This document shows positions 170 to 47,226 of a stretch of DNA of 48,422 bases, one piece after another. The DNA comes from Escherichia phage ETEP102. The notes under the pieces are model-generated. The model was given only the letters and a program-made list of their open reading frames with translations, ran no database searches and was not told where the DNA came from. Positions within the stretch are counted from its first letter, which is position 1. Each line of letters opens with the position of its first letter. The stretch lies in sequence record OR979723.1. One strand, given 5' to 3'. Made by a program: the position numbers and the translations under genes.

Positions 170-236
170 TTATTTTCTCCAGTTCTCTTCACTCGTTTCG
201 ATGGAGTAATAATAGCGAATCACACCTGATCGGTCA

Positions 237-254
237 TTAGCAAAAAAGTGCTAT
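237..254 (-). promoter_or_regulatory. ATAGCAC-N5-TGCTAA motif copy (minus orientation) upstream of gene at 169
   Basis: Minus strand reads AATAGCACTTTTTTGCTAATG, then about 23 nt to TATTAT, then leader CCATCGAAACGA, GGAG and ATG. Confidence 0.45.
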
Positions 255-267
255 TCGTTGGATTTAT

Positions 268-374
268 GGATTGTTGCAGATATTGCAATGATTCACTTCA
301 CTATTGCACATATAGCAATATTGCATCGTTTGCAATGATGTTTTAGATTGTTGCGAATTGAGCAATGATTCATT
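268..374. repeat. array of ATTGCA/TGCAAT palindromes and a 27-bp direct repeat (operator/iteron-like)
   Basis: GATTGTTGC(A/G)...CAATGATTCA at 268-296 and 346-374; inverted repeats TATTGC-N7-GCAATA (302-320) and ATTGCA-N5-TGCAAT (321-337). Confidence 0.5.
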
Positions 375-532
375 GATGGGGGGAATGATGGGGTGAAGTC
401 TGATCCCCTGATCGCCTGGTTGGAACTTTCCGCCACACGTTTTCCATCGCATACGCGTAATTGTGCGTAACGCATGTATAGGCCTTGTATGCTGTGTAAC
501 GATTTGGCCTAAGCATACGCGGCATACGCAGT

Positions 533-622: not shown

Positions 623-890
623 GTTGTCTAAGTGTGGCATCTGTCAAATTTGATAATATCCCCCACTAATATATAAGAGAGCCATTCCGCCAGGATAATA
701 GGGCCATATGCAGACAATCACCTTTCAGTATGCGTTACACGATATACCGCCTACTTACACCAGTCGTAGCGAGGCCTCCAAGGCGGAAATGTTTCCCGAC
801 CTGTTTTTTACATGCGATTACGGTTGACTTACGCGTTAACTCCCATCATAATTGCCTCACTTAAACGCAACAATCAAATGAGGTAACGAG

Positions 891-7659: not shown

Positions 7660-8178
7660 ATGAAAGATGAAAACTTCACCAGCGCCGCTCAAGAGAAGGT
7701 GCGTATTGGCAACTTCAAGGAGCTGTACAATAAAAAGTATGGCGACATCGCCAACCTGAGCCATCGTCACCCAATGACGCCTGAAACTGTATTCAATCTT
7801 GCGGTTAAATATTTCTCATGGGCTGAGAGTCAGGCCATTAAGGCGATTGAAACAGCAAGTTTTCAAGGCGTAGTTACTGAGAACCTCGTGCATAAGCATC
7901 GCATTTTCACTTTAAACGGATTCTGCCTGTACTGCGGAGTTACAGCAAGCTCAATCCAGAGCTGGCGCGCATCACCTGGATTTGCTGAGGTCGTTGAGTT
8001 CATTGACGCTGTAATACATGAGCAAAAATATCAGCTCGCCGCTTCCAACCTCATCAACGCCGGATTCGTAGGTAAAGAGATCGGAATCGACAAGGCCGCT
8101 GAGGTCAACGTAAGCAATGTAGTGAATGACACTCAAACGATTGAGGATGCCGTGAAAAGCGTACTTGATAAGATTTGA
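7660..8178 (+). CDS. putative terminase small subunit
   Basis: 172-aa ORF at head of packaging module, upstream of large terminase; call by position only. Confidence 0.45.
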   Translation: MKDENFTSAAQEKVRIGNFKELYNKKYGDIANLSHRHPMTPETVFNLAVKYFSWAESQAIKAIETASFQGVVTENLVHKHRIFTLNGFCLYCGVTASSIQSWRASPGFAEVVEFIDAVIHEQKYQLAASNLINAGFVGKEIGIDKAAEVNVSNVVNDTQTIEDAVKSVLDKI

Positions 8179-8235: not shown

Positions 8236-8748
8236 ATGATTAATGCAAAGCAGTTGCCAGACCTATCAATTCTAAACCATATATTTGATTATGATCCTGA
8301 GAGCGGCGTGCTTTACTGGAAGAACCCAACCAGTAAGAGGGTGAGGCCTGGCCGTGAGGCTGGAACGCTGCATAAACCAAGTGGAAGGTTACAGGTTCAA
8401 ATATCAGGTAGCATCTACAAAGTATCAAGAGTTGTGTTTTACATGCACTACGGAAGGCAACCAGAAGGAGTTGTTGACCATGTTGATCACAACACTCTGA
8501 ACAACAGGCCTGATAATTTAAGGGATGCCACGATGAGTCAGAACGGAATGAATAAATCAATGCAGTCAAATAATACATCTGGATATAAAGGCGTTAGCTT
8601 CCATAAAGGCAGGGGTGAGTTTATAGCTTACGCAAAAGTTGACGGAAAGATGGTGTTTGGTGGGTGGCATAAATCAGCGATAGACGCCGCTTACTCAGCA
8701 GCAAATCTAAGAGAAAAATTGCACGGAGAATTTGTACATCATGGCTAA
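8236..8748 (+). CDS. HNH homing endonuclease
   Basis: VVDHVDHNTLNNRPDNLR HNH core; YKGVSF...FIAYAKVDGK AP2-like tail; inserted between terminase genes. Confidence 0.8.
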   Translation: MINAKQLPDLSILNHIFDYDPESGVLYWKNPTSKRVRPGREAGTLHKPSGRLQVQISGSIYKVSRVVFYMHYGRQPEGVVDHVDHNTLNNRPDNLRDATMSQNGMNKSMQSNNTSGYKGVSFHKGRGEFIAYAKVDGKMVFGGWHKSAIDAAYSAANLREKLHGEFVHHG

Positions 8749-34606: not shown

Positions 34607-35080
34607 TTACTCTTTAGCTTTTCGTGCTGCTTCGTTAGCGGCCTTAATCTTGCGCCACGATCGACATTCTGGCTTCGTAGCTAATTCAGCATCAGTAACA
34701 ACGCGCAGCATGTGACGTTTTTTGCACCGGAGTGTCAGCGGCTTTCCGTTGCCATCGAATTGCAGATCCGGTCGGCAAAAAGTCGCGCGAAAACCCTCTC
34801 CAGTTCGCTTGTATCGGTTGTGCGCCAGTTGAGCGCCTCGGGCCGACATCATGCCCCTCTTGAACCATTCCTCAACCGCCTGGCGACTAACCTTCAGTTG
34901 CTTTGCGATATTGGCCTTCGTTCCGTAGAAGTCGAGAACCATCTCCAGTCGCGCCAGAAGCCCGGCCTTTACTTCATCTTTTAAAACGTAGTAACCTGAA
35001 GGTCGTTTTCGTTGCTTTTTGTCTTCAGTTCGGACTGTTCCGTTGTTGCCGTTAATGGTTCGCTTGTCGACTGCATTCAT
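34607..35080 (-). CDS. HTH DNA-binding regulator
   Basis: Helix-turn-helix ANIAKQLKVSRQAVEEWFKRG; basic tails; divergent from helicase gene. Confidence 0.5.
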   Translation of the reverse strand: MNAVDKRTINGNNGTVRTEDKKQRKRPSGYYVLKDEVKAGLLARLEMVLDFYGTKANIAKQLKVSRQAVEEWFKRGMMSARGAQLAHNRYKRTGEGFRATFCRPDLQFDGNGKPLTLRCKKRHMLRVVTDAELATKPECRSWRKIKAANEAARKAKE

Positions 35081-35172: not shown

Positions 35173-37275
35173 ATGGCTATGCGCATTAAATCCATCAAAA
35201 AACAGATAGAGGAACTCGGTCCTCAGAAGATAAAAGAAATTCAGGATAAGTTTACCTTTGGTGACATGGTTCCGTATGAGTACCAGTGCGTGATGTATGA
35301 TGAGATCGGCAAGCGCATTGCTCGCTATAAGCATCCATTCATTGTTAAGGCTTCCGTATCTGCTGGTAAAACAATTGGCTTTGCCATGATCGCGTCTCGA
35401 GTTAAAGAGATGGGACTTTCAATGATGATACTTGCGCGCCAGGGCGACATCGTCGCTCAGGATAGCGAGGAGATCTCAAACTTCGGCGTTCCAAACTCTG
35501 TTTACTGTGCTGGCCTGAATACAAAATCCGCATACTTCCCTATAGTTGTAGGATCGGAAGGTTCAGTGGCGAACGGTCTATTCAAGGCTCTGGGTGACTT
35601 TACTCCAATGGTGCTGGGTATTGATGAATGTCACCAGGTAGACTGGGAAGACCTTGCTGCAGCCATCGGCAATGAAGAAACGATTGAGATGATGCTAACT
35701 GAAAAGGATGAGCGAGTATTCATTGATTACCCTAAAAATCGCGATGGTTATGTCAATGGTTATCTTAATGGCGTAGAGGTTGGCGCCCAGGTAATGGATA
35801 AGCAATTGCTAATCAGCCGGAAGACTGGCGAGCCTGTGTTGGGAACAAAGCGAAGCCAATACACGATCATAATCACTGAGCTAATGAGGCGCTGCAAAGA
35901 GAAGAATGGCAAGGAATTAAGGATATTCGGGATGACTGGTTCTGAGTTCAGAGGAACAGCTCCAATCGTAGTTGACAACCCAAAGCTACCTGGATTCTGG
36001 CGTGAGCAGGTGACTAATATTGACACAAATTACCTTATTGAGTTCGGATCTGTGGTTCCGACTGTTTTTGGTAGTGTCGGTGATGCTGGTTATGATCTTG
36101 ATGAGTTCAAGGCATCAAGTCAGGACGGCACGGCTGACTTCAGCCAGAAAGATATGAAGGCGATGGAAAAGAAAATCCATGACAACGCCAGCATGACCAA
36201 GCGAATCATGGAAATGGTTGTTGAGGAGGCAAAGAAGCGAAACGGGGTTCTTATTACATGCTCAGGGCAGCGCCACTGCAAAGAGGCAGCGAGCTATCTG
36301 CCACCTGACGCCACCTATGAGATCATCACCGAGAAGACAAACACCAAAAAGCGACAAGCAATACTGGAAGCGGCTAACCGTGGTGAAATTAAATACATTT
36401 TCCAGGTTATAGCGCTAACTACTGGAGTTAACGTTCCGTTTTGGGATTTCTCAGTCATCCTGCGTAAGATTGGTTCTCTTACACTACTGATCCAGCTTCT
36501 CGGTCGCGGAATGCGATTGCTTAAACCGTGGCAAAAAGCAATGGGTATGGTTAAGGAAGATCACCTTGTGTGGGATTTCGCGGGTTGCATGGACGAGTTA
36601 GGTCAGTTATACTTTGACCCCATCCTTGAGGAATCACAGTATCAGCGCCGCTTTGACGGTAAGAAAGAACCGAAGAAATGTGAGTTGTGCGGAACTGAGA
36701 ACAGTTTTTACGCTCGCCGTTGCATTCACAGAGACGAAAACGGCAATCGTTGTGAGTATTTCTGGAAGTCTCGCGTATGTGAAGACCAGATTGATGATCG
36801 CACTGGCGAAGTGCTCGCTAAGGGTTGCGGAACTGAGAATGACGTAGTTGCTAGAATATGCCGCTGCTGTGACGTGAGCTTGAAAGACCCCAATGACAAT
36901 CTGACTGGTAAGGCTTACACAAAAAACGACTGGTGCACAGTTAATAGCTTTGAAGTGACGCTGACGAGAAATCAGACTGGTATTCTTTATCGTTACGACC
37001 TTACCGACTCGATGGGGGTTAACTTCATTGCTTATGAAAAATTTTTCCCTCAATCAACGGCGCAGGTATGCCACACGATATGGAAACAAAAAGGTGTATT
37101 GCCTCATGTGCATGACAGCAAGATCGCAAAGTTAATGGCAGCTTACAGAAGTGCGAAAATGATTTTAAACAACGCTCACCACATAGCACATCCGGTGCGG
37201 GTAACACACCGAAAAAATGCAAAAGGTGATGATATTATTTCACGTAAAGATTTCGGATTGGATGGTAACTTATGA
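35173..37275 (+). CDS. SF2 DEAD/DEAH-box helicase with C-terminal Cys-rich domain
   Basis: Walker A SAGKT, Walker B GIDECHQ, C-terminal CELCG...CIHRD...CRCC cysteine clusters. Confidence 0.75.
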   Translation: MAMRIKSIKKQIEELGPQKIKEIQDKFTFGDMVPYEYQCVMYDEIGKRIARYKHPFIVKASVSAGKTIGFAMIASRVKEMGLSMMILARQGDIVAQDSEEISNFGVPNSVYCAGLNTKSAYFPIVVGSEGSVANGLFKALGDFTPMVLGIDECHQVDWEDLAAAIGNEETIEMMLTEKDERVFIDYPKNRDGYVNGYLNGVEVGAQVMDKQLLISRKTGEPVLGTKRSQYTIIITELMRRCKEKNGKELRIFGMTGSEFRGTAPIVVDNPKLPGFWREQVTNIDTNYLIEFGSVVPTVFGSVGDAGYDLDEFKASSQDGTADFSQKDMKAMEKKIHDNASMTKRIMEMVVEEAKKRNGVLITCSGQRHCKEAASYLPPDATYEIITEKTNTKKRQAILEAANRGEIKYIFQVIALTTGVNVPFWDFSVILRKIGSLTLLIQLLGRGMRLLKPWQKAMGMVKEDHLVWDFAGCMDELGQLYFDPILEESQYQRRFDGKKEPKKCELCGTENSFYARRCIHRDENGNRCEYFWKSRVCEDQIDDRTGEVLAKGCGTENDVVARICRCCDVSLKDPNDNLTGKAYTKNDWCTVNSFEVTLTRNQTGILYRYDLTDSMGVNFIAYEKFFPQSTAQVCHTIWKQKGVLPHVHDSKIAKLMAAYRSAKMILNNAHHIAHPVRVTHRKNAKGDDIISRKDFGLDGNL

Positions 37276-38658: not shown

Positions 38659-39387
38659 ATGATCGAATCAGACGACAAATATACTCATGACGAATTCGTT
38701 AGCTTTGAACAGATTGAGCGTGAGAACTTCGTGGCAAATGCCCTCGTTCCTGGTTACGGGCACTACCAAGCAGTTAAGCCTGACACATTTTATCATGTAA
38801 CTGGAAAACGATACGCCGGAAGTAAGACACCTGACGCAGTAAGAGATCTTTGGGCCACCGACAGGGAGCTGATCTCATGGATGGAGTCGCGTTATGGAAA
38901 GTATGACATCGACGCCGCCGCCAGCGCTAACAATGCGGTTTGCGAAAAGTTCTATAGCGAGCAATTGAACTGCCTTAAGATCTGGTGGGGCAGAAATAAG
39001 CACATATGGCTTAACCCTCCTTACTCACATCCAGATCCTTTCGTTAAGAAAGCGATTGAGCAGATGGAGCACGGGAACCAGATTGACATGCTCTTGCCTG
39101 GCGATAACTCGACGGCGTGGTTCGCTGAGGCGAGACGCAATGCGGCTGAGATCATCTGGATTGAGGCAGAGATAACAGAAATTGACCAGCAGGAATACTG
39201 CCGAACAGGACGACTAGCTTTCATATCTGGACTGGCCGGAAAGCCTGTGGATGGAAACAATAAAGGATCTGTCATCTTCGTCATGCGAAAGCTGAAAGAA
39301 GGTGAGGAACAGAAAACGACGTATGTTAGCGTCTCTGAGATTTGCCCTGGCGTAAGCCGAAAGAAACCACGTAAGCGGAGTGTTTAA
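38659..39387 (+). CDS. dam: DNA N6-adenine methyltransferase (Dam-like)
   Basis: Catalytic NPPY motif (WLNPPYS) and context typical of phage Dam methylases. Confidence 0.8.
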   Translation: MIESDDKYTHDEFVSFEQIERENFVANALVPGYGHYQAVKPDTFYHVTGKRYAGSKTPDAVRDLWATDRELISWMESRYGKYDIDAAASANNAVCEKFYSEQLNCLKIWWGRNKHIWLNPPYSHPDPFVKKAIEQMEHGNQIDMLLPGDNSTAWFAEARRNAAEIIWIEAEITEIDQQEYCRTGRLAFISGLAGKPVDGNNKGSVIFVMRKLKEGEEQKTTYVSVSEICPGVSRKKPRKRSV

Positions 39388-43609: not shown

Positions 43610-44134
43610 TTAGCGCCCGTGGTTATGGTGGAATTTAAGCCTTGCCCTAGCATCAATCACGGCCTGGCAGGCATCATCAAACAGGTAAAAAGTTCCTAGT
43701 GCAATTCTTTTACCGCTCAGGGATATTCTGGCCTTGAACTTCCCGTTCTTTTCAATCGTAACGCCAGGGAATCCGCTGGTGTTATTCTTATATACACTTT
43801 TGTTTTTTGAGTTATCTTGAGCCGATACAAGCCTGAGATTTACTCGTCTATTATCCATTCTATTATGATTTATGTGGTCAATCTGCATCCCCTTCGGTAT
43901 TTCACCCTCTCAAATATTCCATATTACAACGTGATTTGTCAGCCTCTTACCACCATAATCGAAACGCCTATAGCCACCTCTTGACTTATTGCCGCAATAG
44001 TTACCTTCTATCGCGGTTGGGTTTATTGTCCTAAGCCAGACTAAATCAATACCATCATAACCAATGTCAGGATAGCAATCGTGGGTTAACATATACCTTG
44101 TCTCCAATTGTGCAGGTGTAATATTTCTCATCAA
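43610..44134 (-). pseudogene. HNH homing endonuclease interrupted by in-frame TGA (43910-43912)
   Basis: Track ORFs 43910-44134 and 43610-43888 are in the same frame; joined reading ...HVVIWNI-stop-EGEIPKGMQIDHINHNRMDNRRVNLR matches intact paralog ...HRVIWYIHNGEIPEGMEVDHINHERDDNRISNLR. Confidence 0.6.
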
Positions 44135-45650
44135 GCATTGGCAGTAAGTGATCTTTAATCTTTGTCATTATCCCGGCCTGAGATTCGAATGGCTTAACCT
44201 TACGCGCCGCTTCATATAGGGATCGGACACCTACAACGCCTTTCCCGTTCTTGCCTTGCTTGATCAGGATGTCAATCAGCTTGTTCATCTCAGCATGGTC
44301 GCCAGCATGACCAGCAGCGTTTGCAGATGACAGATAAGTCTTACTCAGTTCCTGGAACATAATTACCGCTTCCTGCATTGTGTCAAGCTCAATCTCTCTG
44401 GACTTCTGCGGACTCCCGCCATTGGGATTAAACCAGTTACGCACAGTGTGAAGAACAGCAGCAATCCTGATGGCCTGCTTATCGAACTTACCCAACGCGC
44501 CGCGCAACATTGTGTGTGAATACTTCCCGCCGTCCGCAAGGTGAGGCTCCATATCCTGACGCGCACGGTTGAGATATTTCATCGCCGACGTGCTCACTGT
44601 CAGGTTGACTTCGTGTTCGCTCATGATCTCATGGACCAGACGGAAGTAGTCCGCCTTGAGTCCGCCATCAATCGGCTCGTATGTTGATTCGCCTTTTTCG
44701 TCAACGAATACACGCTCGCCAAGGAATGACTTCTCACGCACAAGCAAGAAACGTTCTGACACACCGATACCACGCGCACCAGCATTCATGATCGCGTTGA
44801 TTGTTTCATCCTGTGCAATTACAGAGATGCAACCCATCGCAATAAAGCTCATGTTATTGTCTGCGTTCGCACGCGCGATAGATACGTTACCAGCATCCCA
44901 TGCTTTCAGCACAAGCTCGCTGTTCGTTTTCTTTGAACCGTCACCATAGGTCATGCCTAAAAGTGAGTTCACGCTCGTCGCTTCATCCGAGATCACAGAG
45001 AAGTTGCCCTGGCGGTTGTTGATTCTCGCAAGACCTTCCGGCGTGGTGTCTGATACGGGGAACACGATGTCACAAAGGCGTTCCAGTTTTTCTTCCAGTT
45101 CTTCTTTTTCCTCAAACAGCGCCGCCATGTCAGATGGTGATTTCTCCTGCTTCATCTCCTTGGATAGAGCGGAAAGCTTAGCCATAATCTTCTTGCGGTC
45201 ACGCCTTCGGATCTCGTTGAGTCGCTCAGTCTCGGCGATCATCGGGGCCAGTGAAAGTGAGTTGATAGCTGATTTACCCGTCGATGGTGGCTGACTGGTT
45301 ACGACGTACAGCGCGGTAGGCTGTTGTGTTCCGTGATACTCAACCGTAAATCGTCCAAGCATCGCAGCAGAGATACATCCCAGGAAGTGCATATAAGCAG
45401 ATGACTCGGGGAACTGGACTGAGCGAGCAGCGTTGCTCGATAGTTTACCAACGACATCATGATCGTTTCCCAGGGAGATGACGGGATATTTGTCACCGCC
45501 TGAGTCAATCTCTGTAGGAGCTTTCCAGAATGACTGGCTCTGCCTGTATCCGTTGGCATTGATGGCGACGCGCAGAGGCGGGAGGTTATCGGCGGCGGCG
45601 ACAGCCATAACCTGATCAATTGACAATTTATCTTCGTTGAAATCAAACAT
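44067..45650 (-). CDS. P-loop ATPase, putative replicative primase-helicase C-terminal-type (DUF3987-like)
   Basis: Walker A-like SQPPSTGKSA; 527 aa; AAGGAG RBS; family name from recollection only. Confidence 0.5.
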   Translation of the reverse strand: MFDFNEDKLSIDQVMAVAAADNLPPLRVAINANGYRQSQSFWKAPTEIDSGGDKYPVISLGNDHDVVGKLSSNAARSVQFPESSAYMHFLGCISAAMLGRFTVEYHGTQQPTALYVVTSQPPSTGKSAINSLSLAPMIAETERLNEIRRRDRKKIMAKLSALSKEMKQEKSPSDMAALFEEKEELEEKLERLCDIVFPVSDTTPEGLARINNRQGNFSVISDEATSVNSLLGMTYGDGSKKTNSELVLKAWDAGNVSIARANADNNMSFIAMGCISVIAQDETINAIMNAGARGIGVSERFLLVREKSFLGERVFVDEKGESTYEPIDGGLKADYFRLVHEIMSEHEVNLTVSTSAMKYLNRARQDMEPHLADGGKYSHTMLRGALGKFDKQAIRIAAVLHTVRNWFNPNGGSPQKSREIELDTMQEAVIMFQELSKTYLSSANAAGHAGDHAEMNKLIDILIKQGKNGKGVVGVRSLYEAARKVKPFESQAGIMTKIKDHLLPMLDEKYYTCTIGDKVYVNPRLLS

Positions 45651-46830: not shown

Positions 46831-46985
46831 TTCTTCATTGCCTTCTTGATTGCTTTCTGTGTGATTTCGAAACTGCTTTGCAGGTCTTCAACTTGCGCGG
46901 ATGTGATCCATGGATACCATCCTTTACCCGACATCTTCGCTATCGTGTCATTATCGTAATAGTTCAGATCTGAAGGTTTAAGCAT
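46827..46985 (-). CDS. small hypothetical protein (52 aa)
   Basis: ATG with GAGGTG 5 nt upstream; stop overlaps methyltransferase ATG (ATGA). Confidence 0.35.
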   Translation of the reverse strand: MLKPSDLNYYDNDTIAKMSGKGWYPWITSAQVEDLQSSFEITQKAIKKAMKK

Positions 46986-47226
46986 CTTTCACCTCATCAA
47001 AAGTTGCAATTCCAGGAATAAACATTCCAACCTTCCAGCCAGCGATGGCAACCCATCCAGAATCGTGCTTGTGCGGTCGCTCAGCGCCATTAATCAACCA
47101 CTCGTTCGGGATTGTCTTGCCGTTAATGATTAGCGGCTCAGCGTCGTATACAGAGCCTTTTACAAATGGCGTTAAAACCTTTTTGTCGGTGCTGGTGATT
47201 ACGTTCGTGCAGCGAATTTTCATCAT
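46978..47226 (-). CDS. hypothetical protein (82 aa)
   Basis: ORF in minus-strand early operon. Confidence 0.4.
   Translation of the reverse strand: MMKIRCTNVITSTDKKVLTPFVKGSVYDAEPLIINGKTIPNEWLINGAERPHKHDSGWVAIAGWKVGMFIPGIATFDEVKDA

Follow-up and report, generated by a model that had tools for sequence, protein, structure and literature searches.

The non-coding hub of the Escherichia phage ETEP102 genome (sequence record OR979723.1) was found to carry a compact array of four palindromes, which may best be explained as an operator-type docking array for the phage's own 157-aa Cro-fold helix-turn-helix (HTH) protein, a reading which was derived from sequence comparison and whose probability comes close to, but stays below, an even chance. 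According to this proposal, the four dyad-symmetric 15-bp sites would be read on double-stranded DNA by dimers of the lineage-specific HTH protein, whereby up to four dimers may bind cooperatively, the resulting nucleoprotein complex being placed immediately upstream of P_L, the leftward early promoter. The complex would control how active P_L is, a promoter from which the helicase operon is fed; lying about 40 bp from the position at which headful packaging starts in relatives and some 180 bp away from a segment of iterons and AT-rich DNA, it may in addition gate access to both. The output of the complex may be promoter control, origin firing or the clearing of the packaging site.

T1-like phages are classic yet poorly understood, with their origin, their pac sequence and their early regulation being undefined at the sequence level. 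The analysis reported here defines a conserved and unique putative binding array where the early promoter meets the packaging start, names one candidate binder (the T1 gp23 / Rtp52 family protein) and identifies a natural swap pair (Rtp versus the Guelphvirus SCS31). A description of the array was not found in the literature that could be searched; the array is newly described, but it is an ordinary kind of regulatory element, and it is useful for the engineering and the annotation of Drexlerviridae.

Anatomy of the array and its genomic setting

The stretch of DNA analysed (hereafter the window, 48,422 bp in length) represents an entire genome, closed into a circle, which belongs to a T1-like siphophage of the Drexlerviridae; at the DNA level it is matched best by TH30 (94%), followed by the Nouzillyvirus ESCO41 (87%). 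The array is housed in a 720-bp non-coding hub (170-890) which separates two divergent operons. To the left, a leftward operon of small genes has the DUF3987 helicase gene as its last member; its 67-aa gene starts at 169, crosses the left end of the window and is completed at the right end. To the right, a rightward operon begins with a DUF7174 gene (891-1427) and continues to TerS (7660-8178), an HNH gene and TerL. The divergent layout with a hub of about 700 bp was found in all relatives examined. The promoter P_L serves the 67-aa gene and the operon ending with the helicase, and a gap of approximately 15 nt separates the upstream element of P_L from the array further upstream, which covers about -65 to -170 relative to the inferred start. 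The features considered are compiled in Table 1.

Table 1. Positions in the window of the array, of the elements around it and of the two proteins that separate array-bearing phages
Feature	Position	Strand	Remark
P_L, leftward early promoter	209..254	-	motif kept in all relatives
P_L upstream element, AATAGCAC-N-TTGCTAA	254-238	minus	copy of the 21-nt repeat
P_L -10 box, TATTAT	214-209	minus	
Unit 1, GATTGTTGCAGATATTGCAATGATTCA	269..295	.	holds site 1 (274-288), which can also be read as TTGCA-N5-TGCAA
Site 2, TATTGC-N7-GCAATA	302..320	.	core 304-318
Site 3, ATTGCA-N5-TGCAAT	320..336	.	core 321-335
Unit 4, GATTGTTGCGAATTGAGCAATGATTCA	346..372	.	direct repeat of unit 1 (22/27), holds site 4 (351-365)
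G-rich tract	374-400	+	right of the array
GATC pair	402, 410	+	right of the G-rich tract
G-rich tract, GATC pair and stretch positionally equivalent to the packaging termini of relatives	374..425	+	equivalent in position; no homology shown
Rightward promoter, TTGACT-17-CATAAT	824-852		in the hub
Candidate binder, 157-aa HTH protein (Rtp52 / T1 gp23 family, PHROG 2856)	34607..35080	-	recognition helix SRQAVEEWFKRG; all-alpha Cro-like core
DUF3987 helicase	44067..45650	-	second separator of array-bearing phages, mainly via the N-terminal 60 residues

The first-pass annotation had described a 27-bp direct repeat enclosing two palindromes, and all of these elements are present, with two one-base coordinate slips: the first repeat copy (GATTGTTGCAGATATTGCAATGATTCAC) spans 269-296 instead of 268-296, and ATTGCA-N5-TGCAAT lies at 320-336 instead of 321-337, while the second copy (346-374) and TATTGC-N7-GCAATA are located exactly where they had been placed. 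The two repeat copies agree at 22 of 27 positions (269-295 compared with 346-372) and all five mismatches fall into the N7 spacer of the inner palindrome, so the array resolves into four copies of the 15-bp palindrome TTGC-N7-GCAA. Their centres (281, 311, 328 and 358) follow a 30/17/30 spacing which is symmetric about 319.5. Genome-wide, six exact matches to TTGC-N7-GCAA were counted as compared to 1.74 +/- 1.35 expected, and four of these six locate within 92 nt. As the probability of four out of six random sites lying so close together amounts to about 4e-7, this clustering, together with the excess over expectation, excludes chance. The hexamer ATTGCA, by comparison, is not in excess genome-wide (43 matches in the window against 47.9 expected), with five of its copies lying within 282-336. 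On a larger scale, the array forms a super-palindrome of about 100 bp, in which 29 of 50 base pairs are complementary about 319.5, a value not reached by any other centre genome-wide (mean 12.5, sd 3.1), and whose centre (319/320) is formed by GCAAT|ATTGC (315-324).

The element is considered a feature of duplex DNA, since the single-stranded fold of the array was no better than that of shuffled sequences (z = -0.9) and an Rfam search of the array returned a sub-threshold match only (E 0.94) and thus no family; with the palindrome arms being conserved in sequence without compensatory changes, a reading as RNA or hairpin was discarded. A promoter scan revealed no credible promoter overlapping the four sites, the best candidate inside the array being TTGCAT-17-TAGATT (321-349, found by eye), which matches at 8 of 12 positions and stays under the scan threshold. 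At 866-875, between the -10 box of the rightward promoter and the start codon at 891, the sequence CGCAACAATC is the reverse complement of the site 4 half-unit GATTGTTGCG; this extra half-unit was rejected as a part of the array, being kept in ESCO41 and nowhere beyond.

Conservation and co-variation with a Cro-fold HTH protein

Conservation among relatives, on which the first-pass annotation had made its reading depend, was indeed found, as window positions 233-388 are 80-97% identical in 128 phage records (Rogunavirinae, part of the Braunvirinae and Nouzillyvirus). The matches stop at approximately 233 and 388, and the flanks beyond are not alignable in most records. Among 17 distinct sequences the majority-base frequency is 0.974 for the half-sites, 0.824 for the spacers and 0.744 for the right flank. 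Unit 1 is kept in 17 distinct relatives, and unit 4, which is located about 9 nt ahead of the G-rich tract and may be termed the proximal unit, reappears in T1 as well as in other lineages. TLS, HazelMika and SCS31 lack the array and T1 lacks part of it; at the array position, T1 carries ATTCCA-N7-TGGAAT plus TGGAAT, followed by two TTGC-type palindromes. ATTCC/GGAAT arrays occupy the hub of weberviruses and several other groups, the HazelMika-like hub holds an ATTCC-type array and the TLS hub two copies of TAGACC-GATT-GGTCTA. Within each genome, the lineage-specific palindromes are restricted to the hub.

A co-variation screen, in which all window proteins were compared with those of Rtp, Jk06, SCS31, T1, TLS and HazelMika, initially yielded three candidates, namely the 157-aa HTH protein, the DUF3987 helicase and an 82-aa protein (46978-47226, minus strand). 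The latter accompanies the array in about 123 records, yet it was dropped because it is 91% conserved in the array-less SCS31; the primase does not qualify as a tracker either, as that of Jk06 is 43% identical though Jk06 bears the array. In a separation test covering eight proteins, with six array-bearing genomes being compared to about 38 others, the groups were split by two proteins only, the HTH protein (lowest value within the group 0.86, highest to outsiders 0.75) and the helicase (0.90 versus 0.85). A global pairwise correlation of array and protein identity was too noisy to be used (Spearman rho 0.03-0.40, with a control protein scoring highest); from its sample, the mis-detected hubs of Rtp, L109, L170 and probably L172 were left out or replaced by hand where noticed.

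The natural swap pair documents the same association at closer range. Rtp, which bears the array, and SCS31, in which it is replaced, are about 90-97% identical in most proteins but only 74% in the HTH protein, the differences being concentrated in the two HTH helices (QAVEEW versus AVVSEW). Conversely, most window proteins are 45-75% identical to those of Rtp and Jk06, as compared to 91% and 87% for the HTH protein. At an identity of at least 80%, the HTH protein is found in 128 phage records, which is the same number as that of the array carriers; the array is present in all 10 of the matches listed at this level, and the next match listed below it is that of ACG-M12 (69%).

The Pfam families P22_Cro and YdaS match the HTH protein, both below threshold, and its AlphaFold model (pLDDT 88.6) possesses an all-alpha core. 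This core superposes on Xfaso-1 Cro with a TM score of 0.73 (target-normalised) and an rmsd of 2.4-2.9 A, the corresponding Foldseek E-values being weak (0.018 at best), and it also matches, again with weak Foldseek E-values, N15 Cro bound to its operator. The HTH gene adjoins the primase gene in every case and no TTGC-N7-GCAA site was found in front of it. Among close relatives the reading head thus changes with the sites, whereas across distant lineages helix classes and array types do not correspond one-to-one: ATTCC-type arrays are paired with four different recognition helices, near-identical helices (SQQTVNQW versus SQQVVNQW; THQTIQQW versus THQVIQQW) accompany different arrays, and TTGC-type sites occur without the QAVEEW helix in T1 as well as in the lineages represented by loci L165, L171 and L173.

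In SCS31 (locus L106, at about 95-115 of the record), a single 15-bp palindrome, ATTGA-N5-TCAAT, is kept right before the purine-rich tract. It occupies the position of site 4 and is one symmetric base off TTGC-N7-GCAA, in a phage whose HTH helix reads AVVSEW instead of QAVEEW.

By its anatomy, the array resembles the lambdoid Cro/CI operator clusters and the operator pairs of restriction-modification C-proteins, in which several adjacent dyads of 14-17 bp combine conserved half-sites with free centres, and dyads of this size with conserved half-sites and variable centres are what was found here. As in Cro/CI systems, the proposed reader is a phage-encoded, all-alpha Cro-fold HTH protein, and site and reading head change together between close relatives (Rtp versus SCS31). 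In contrast to these operators, however, the array overlaps no recognisable promoter and comprises four sites spaced 30/17/30 in a 100-bp super-palindrome; moreover, the phage is virulent, and the candidate binder has extra N- and C-terminal parts (157 aa in total) and is encoded 13.5 kb away beside the primase. What speaks against an operator is that the sites reside upstream of P_L and not over it, that the HTH gene is this distant, and that a purely transcriptional role would not predict co-variation of the helicase. A shared ancestry of the replication module among array-bearing lineages may also mimic co-variation. The idea of clustered sites for a dimeric DNA-binding protein, as put forward in the first-pass annotation, was thus strengthened by the dyad symmetry, the conserved half-sites, the variable spacers, the occurrence at this one place and the co-variation with the Cro-fold HTH protein; its wording "operator or iteron" is partly supported as a class.

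Origin, packaging start and host protein as alternatives

As the co-variation of the helicase is left unexplained by a purely transcriptional role, a reading of the array as a lambda-ori-like origin stays alive, although it was considered unlikely. Here, four dyad iterons would be bound by the same HTH protein acting as initiator (its gene lies just upstream of the primase gene), the DUF3987 helicase would be recruited and the AT-rich segment unwound. In lambda ori, four palindromic sites are bound by O, and the four sites of the array would be analogous to this layout; further likenesses are a DNA-binding protein and a helicase which co-vary with the sites, both splitting array-bearing from other phages and the latter differing mainly in its N-terminal 60 residues, as well as a non-coding hub with an AT-rich stretch (80-88% AT, 541-606). 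The constant position of the HTH gene beside the primase and a truncated helicase paralogue encoded at 1427-1987, adjoining the hub, also agree with an origin. Against this, the AT-rich segment is located 176 nt from site 4 (which ends at 365) and the sites are hence not immediately beside an unwinding element, as a different repeat family, [TA]TACGC[AG], intervenes at 451-540 and directly adjoins the AT stretch. With seven copies in 430-860 as compared to 0.36 expected, six of them in 451-540, this family is the more canonical iteron candidate, and it is conserved in SCS31, which lacks the array. Unlike lambda ori, the array would be served by a binder which has a predicted Cro fold, typical of transcription regulators, and is not a recognised initiator; the margin by which the helicase separates the groups is thin (0.90 versus 0.85). 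A broader idea, equally doubtful and drawn by analogy, is that the array, the Cro-fold reading head and the helicase N-terminal domain might constitute one exchangeable specificity module, a dispersed counterpart of origin selection by lambda ori/O/P situated beside the pac cut, which would coordinate replication start, early leftward transcription and the first cut, and of which lineages would swap TTGC, ATTCC and TAGACC cassettes. A host protein, e.g., the LacI-family regulator CytR, was also considered as the reader of the array. CytR half-sites are TGCAA/TTGCA with flexible spacing, and the array half-sites presumably resemble the CytR octamer GTTGCATT; the array is, furthermore, more conserved than any phage packaging protein. 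Since the phages T1, TLS and SCS31 share the host but carry other palindromes or none at this position, since the presence of the array tracks a phage protein and since no complete CRP site was noticed alongside the array on reading the sequence by eye, this explanation was judged highly improbable.

The proximity of the array to the packaging start raised the question of a pac recognition site, meaning that the small terminase would bind the repeats and the first headful cut would take place a few tens of bp rightward. For phage MSK, the forward headful start was placed at 36,862 by PhageTerm (PMC8421802), which falls 39 nt right of site 4 of MSK, and for SU57, whose record was opened at a coverage step selected as the probable end (PMC7718038), the record end falls 56 nt to the right of site 4. 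The T1 record, in which a 2.8-kb terminal repeat is annotated (1-2800), opens 1 nt before a TTGCA-N5-TGCAA palindrome, and the restriction-mapped pac of TLS lies about 85 nt right of that phage's own palindromes. The array site is unique in the genome, and the proximal unit keeps its fixed distance of about 9 nt from the G-rich tract in several lineages. The location at the start of a headful series is, however, given by relative position only (MSK +39 nt, SU57 +56 nt, T1 record start): as the cut-region sequence of the window differs from that of MSK and Rtp, the packaging start of this phage was inferred from its position relative to the array. Unique clusters of short repeats some tens of bp from the packaging start of relatives also liken the array to the terminase arrays lambda cosB (R sites), SPP1 pacL/pacR and P1 pac (hexamers); in contrast to these, no co-variation with the array is seen for TerS or its HTH, and a close relative with nearly the same terminase is devoid of it. 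In detail, TerS of Rtp and SCS31 is 93% identical with an identical HTH segment (TerL, 91%), yet neither the array nor the cut-region sequence is present in SCS31, whereas the window and Rtp share the array but possess TerS proteins of 55% identity with different HTH helices. HazelMika-like TerS is closer to that of the window (60%), but the array there is ATTCC-type, and TerS reaches an identity of at least 80% in only 13 phage records as compared to 128 records with the array. TerS was therefore rejected as the array reader on grounds of co-variation. The array is probably not a terminase recognition site, and the pac reading as a whole was deemed improbable.

Several observations touch upon these alternatives. 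The region 445-606, comprising the [TA]TACGC[AG] repeats and the AT stretch, displays a more canonical origin-like architecture than the array and is conserved in Rtp and SCS31. The same region of the hub holds TTACGC repeats in T1 and TGTTCAC repeats in TLS-like hubs, the latter resembling the iterons of the P4 ori. The 2024 re-annotation of TLS reported no iterons anywhere in the TLS genome, and a search of the literature returned neither transcriptome nor origin studies for Drexlerviridae. Near the hub, the ORFs 1427-1540 and 1568-1987 represent the truncated DUF3987 helicase paralogue, whereby the 37-aa ORF matches the helicase N-terminus and the 139-aa ORF is 52% identical to helicase residues 464-526; in ESCO41, the presumed counterpart has been annotated as one CDS of 174 aa. 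This paralogue may be a regulator which competes for helicase partners. The C-terminal domain of the helicase itself was dismissed as a reader of the array, since the stretch that might serve for recognition stays conserved between lineages whose arrays differ.

Next to the array, two GATC sites 8 nt apart (402-413) reside in the stretch which corresponds by position to the packaging terminus of MSK, and T1, TLS and HazelMika likewise carry GATC clusters between their palindromes and a GAT/G-rich tract. The window encodes a Dam gene (38659-39387), an ORF which shares 88% identity with the adenine methyltransferase annotated in HazelMika. Cleavage at pac is controlled by methylation in phage P1, and the combination of a GATC pair with a phage methyltransferase ORF recalls, by analogy, this type of control. 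An HNH endonuclease gene (8236-8748) is located between TerS and TerL in the window, and likewise in Rtp, while HazelMika and SCS31 have none there and T1 apparently none. Earlier work seeking the pac site of T1 predicted ATATA repeats, as far as it is recounted in a later report (PMC8421802). Several GenBank records are opened in or near the array: Rtp at 313|314, Rogue1 at 319|320, i.e., the centre of the super-palindrome, OzMSK at 312, ESCO41 and XT34 at 274, FP at 245 and T1 1 nt before a palindrome. The openings within the array could be real ends, a copied convention or the result of assemblies breaking at the palindrome.

The 21-nt repeat adjoining the array

The ATAGCAC motif, to which the first-pass annotation had linked the array via a same or related binder, is part of the Drexlerviridae 21-nt intergenic repeat aaATAGCACnnnTTGnTAAAA, which has been described in TLS, T1, Rtp and Rogue1 and whose function was listed as an open question (PMC11447400). 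In the genome, 16 copies of ATAGCAC, given as 15 in the first-pass annotation, were counted against 6 expected, and the 21-nt repeat is positioned 30-33 nt upstream of TATAGT-like -10 boxes and oriented with transcription. The two elements are alike in that the repeat contains a 5-N5-5 palindrome, TAGCA-N5-TGCTA, one symmetric base away from TTGCA-N5-TGCAA, and in that one copy (238-254) abuts the array. They differ in that the repeat comprises 16 dispersed copies, placed some 31 nt ahead of a -10 box, and is shared by the whole family, while the array is a single lineage-specific cluster. None of the four array sites matches aaATAGCACnnnTTGnTAAAA, only the neighbouring copy does, and ATTGCAC, the heptamer on which the proposed link had been based, occurs once in the array (303-309), the remaining half-sites being (A/G)TTGC(A/G). 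As T1, TLS, HazelMika and SCS31 all possess the 21-nt repeat, with other palindromes or none where the array would be, array and repeat vary independently, and a family-wide repeat set against a lineage-specific array leaves the proposed link unsupported.

The palindrome of the 21-nt repeat, TAGCA-N5-TG(C/T)TA, was located at 248-254 and in 15 further copies (e.g., 2199, 3171, 4058, 5563, 35093 and 47750). By positional arithmetic, the centre of the repeat falls at about -42 from the TATAGT-like -10 box, with no -35 hexamer at the usual 17-nt spacing, an arrangement which by analogy is reminiscent of class-II activator sites or of a sigma-appropriation box. A binder of this repeat would be expected throughout the family, in contrast to the recognition helix of the candidate HTH protein, which is lineage-specific. 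Hubs of the T1 group (L012/L013; positions 103-120 of the T1 record) carry an extra leftward 21-nt promoter repeat right of the palindromes, which has no equivalent in the window, and in these phages the array would therefore be transcribed.
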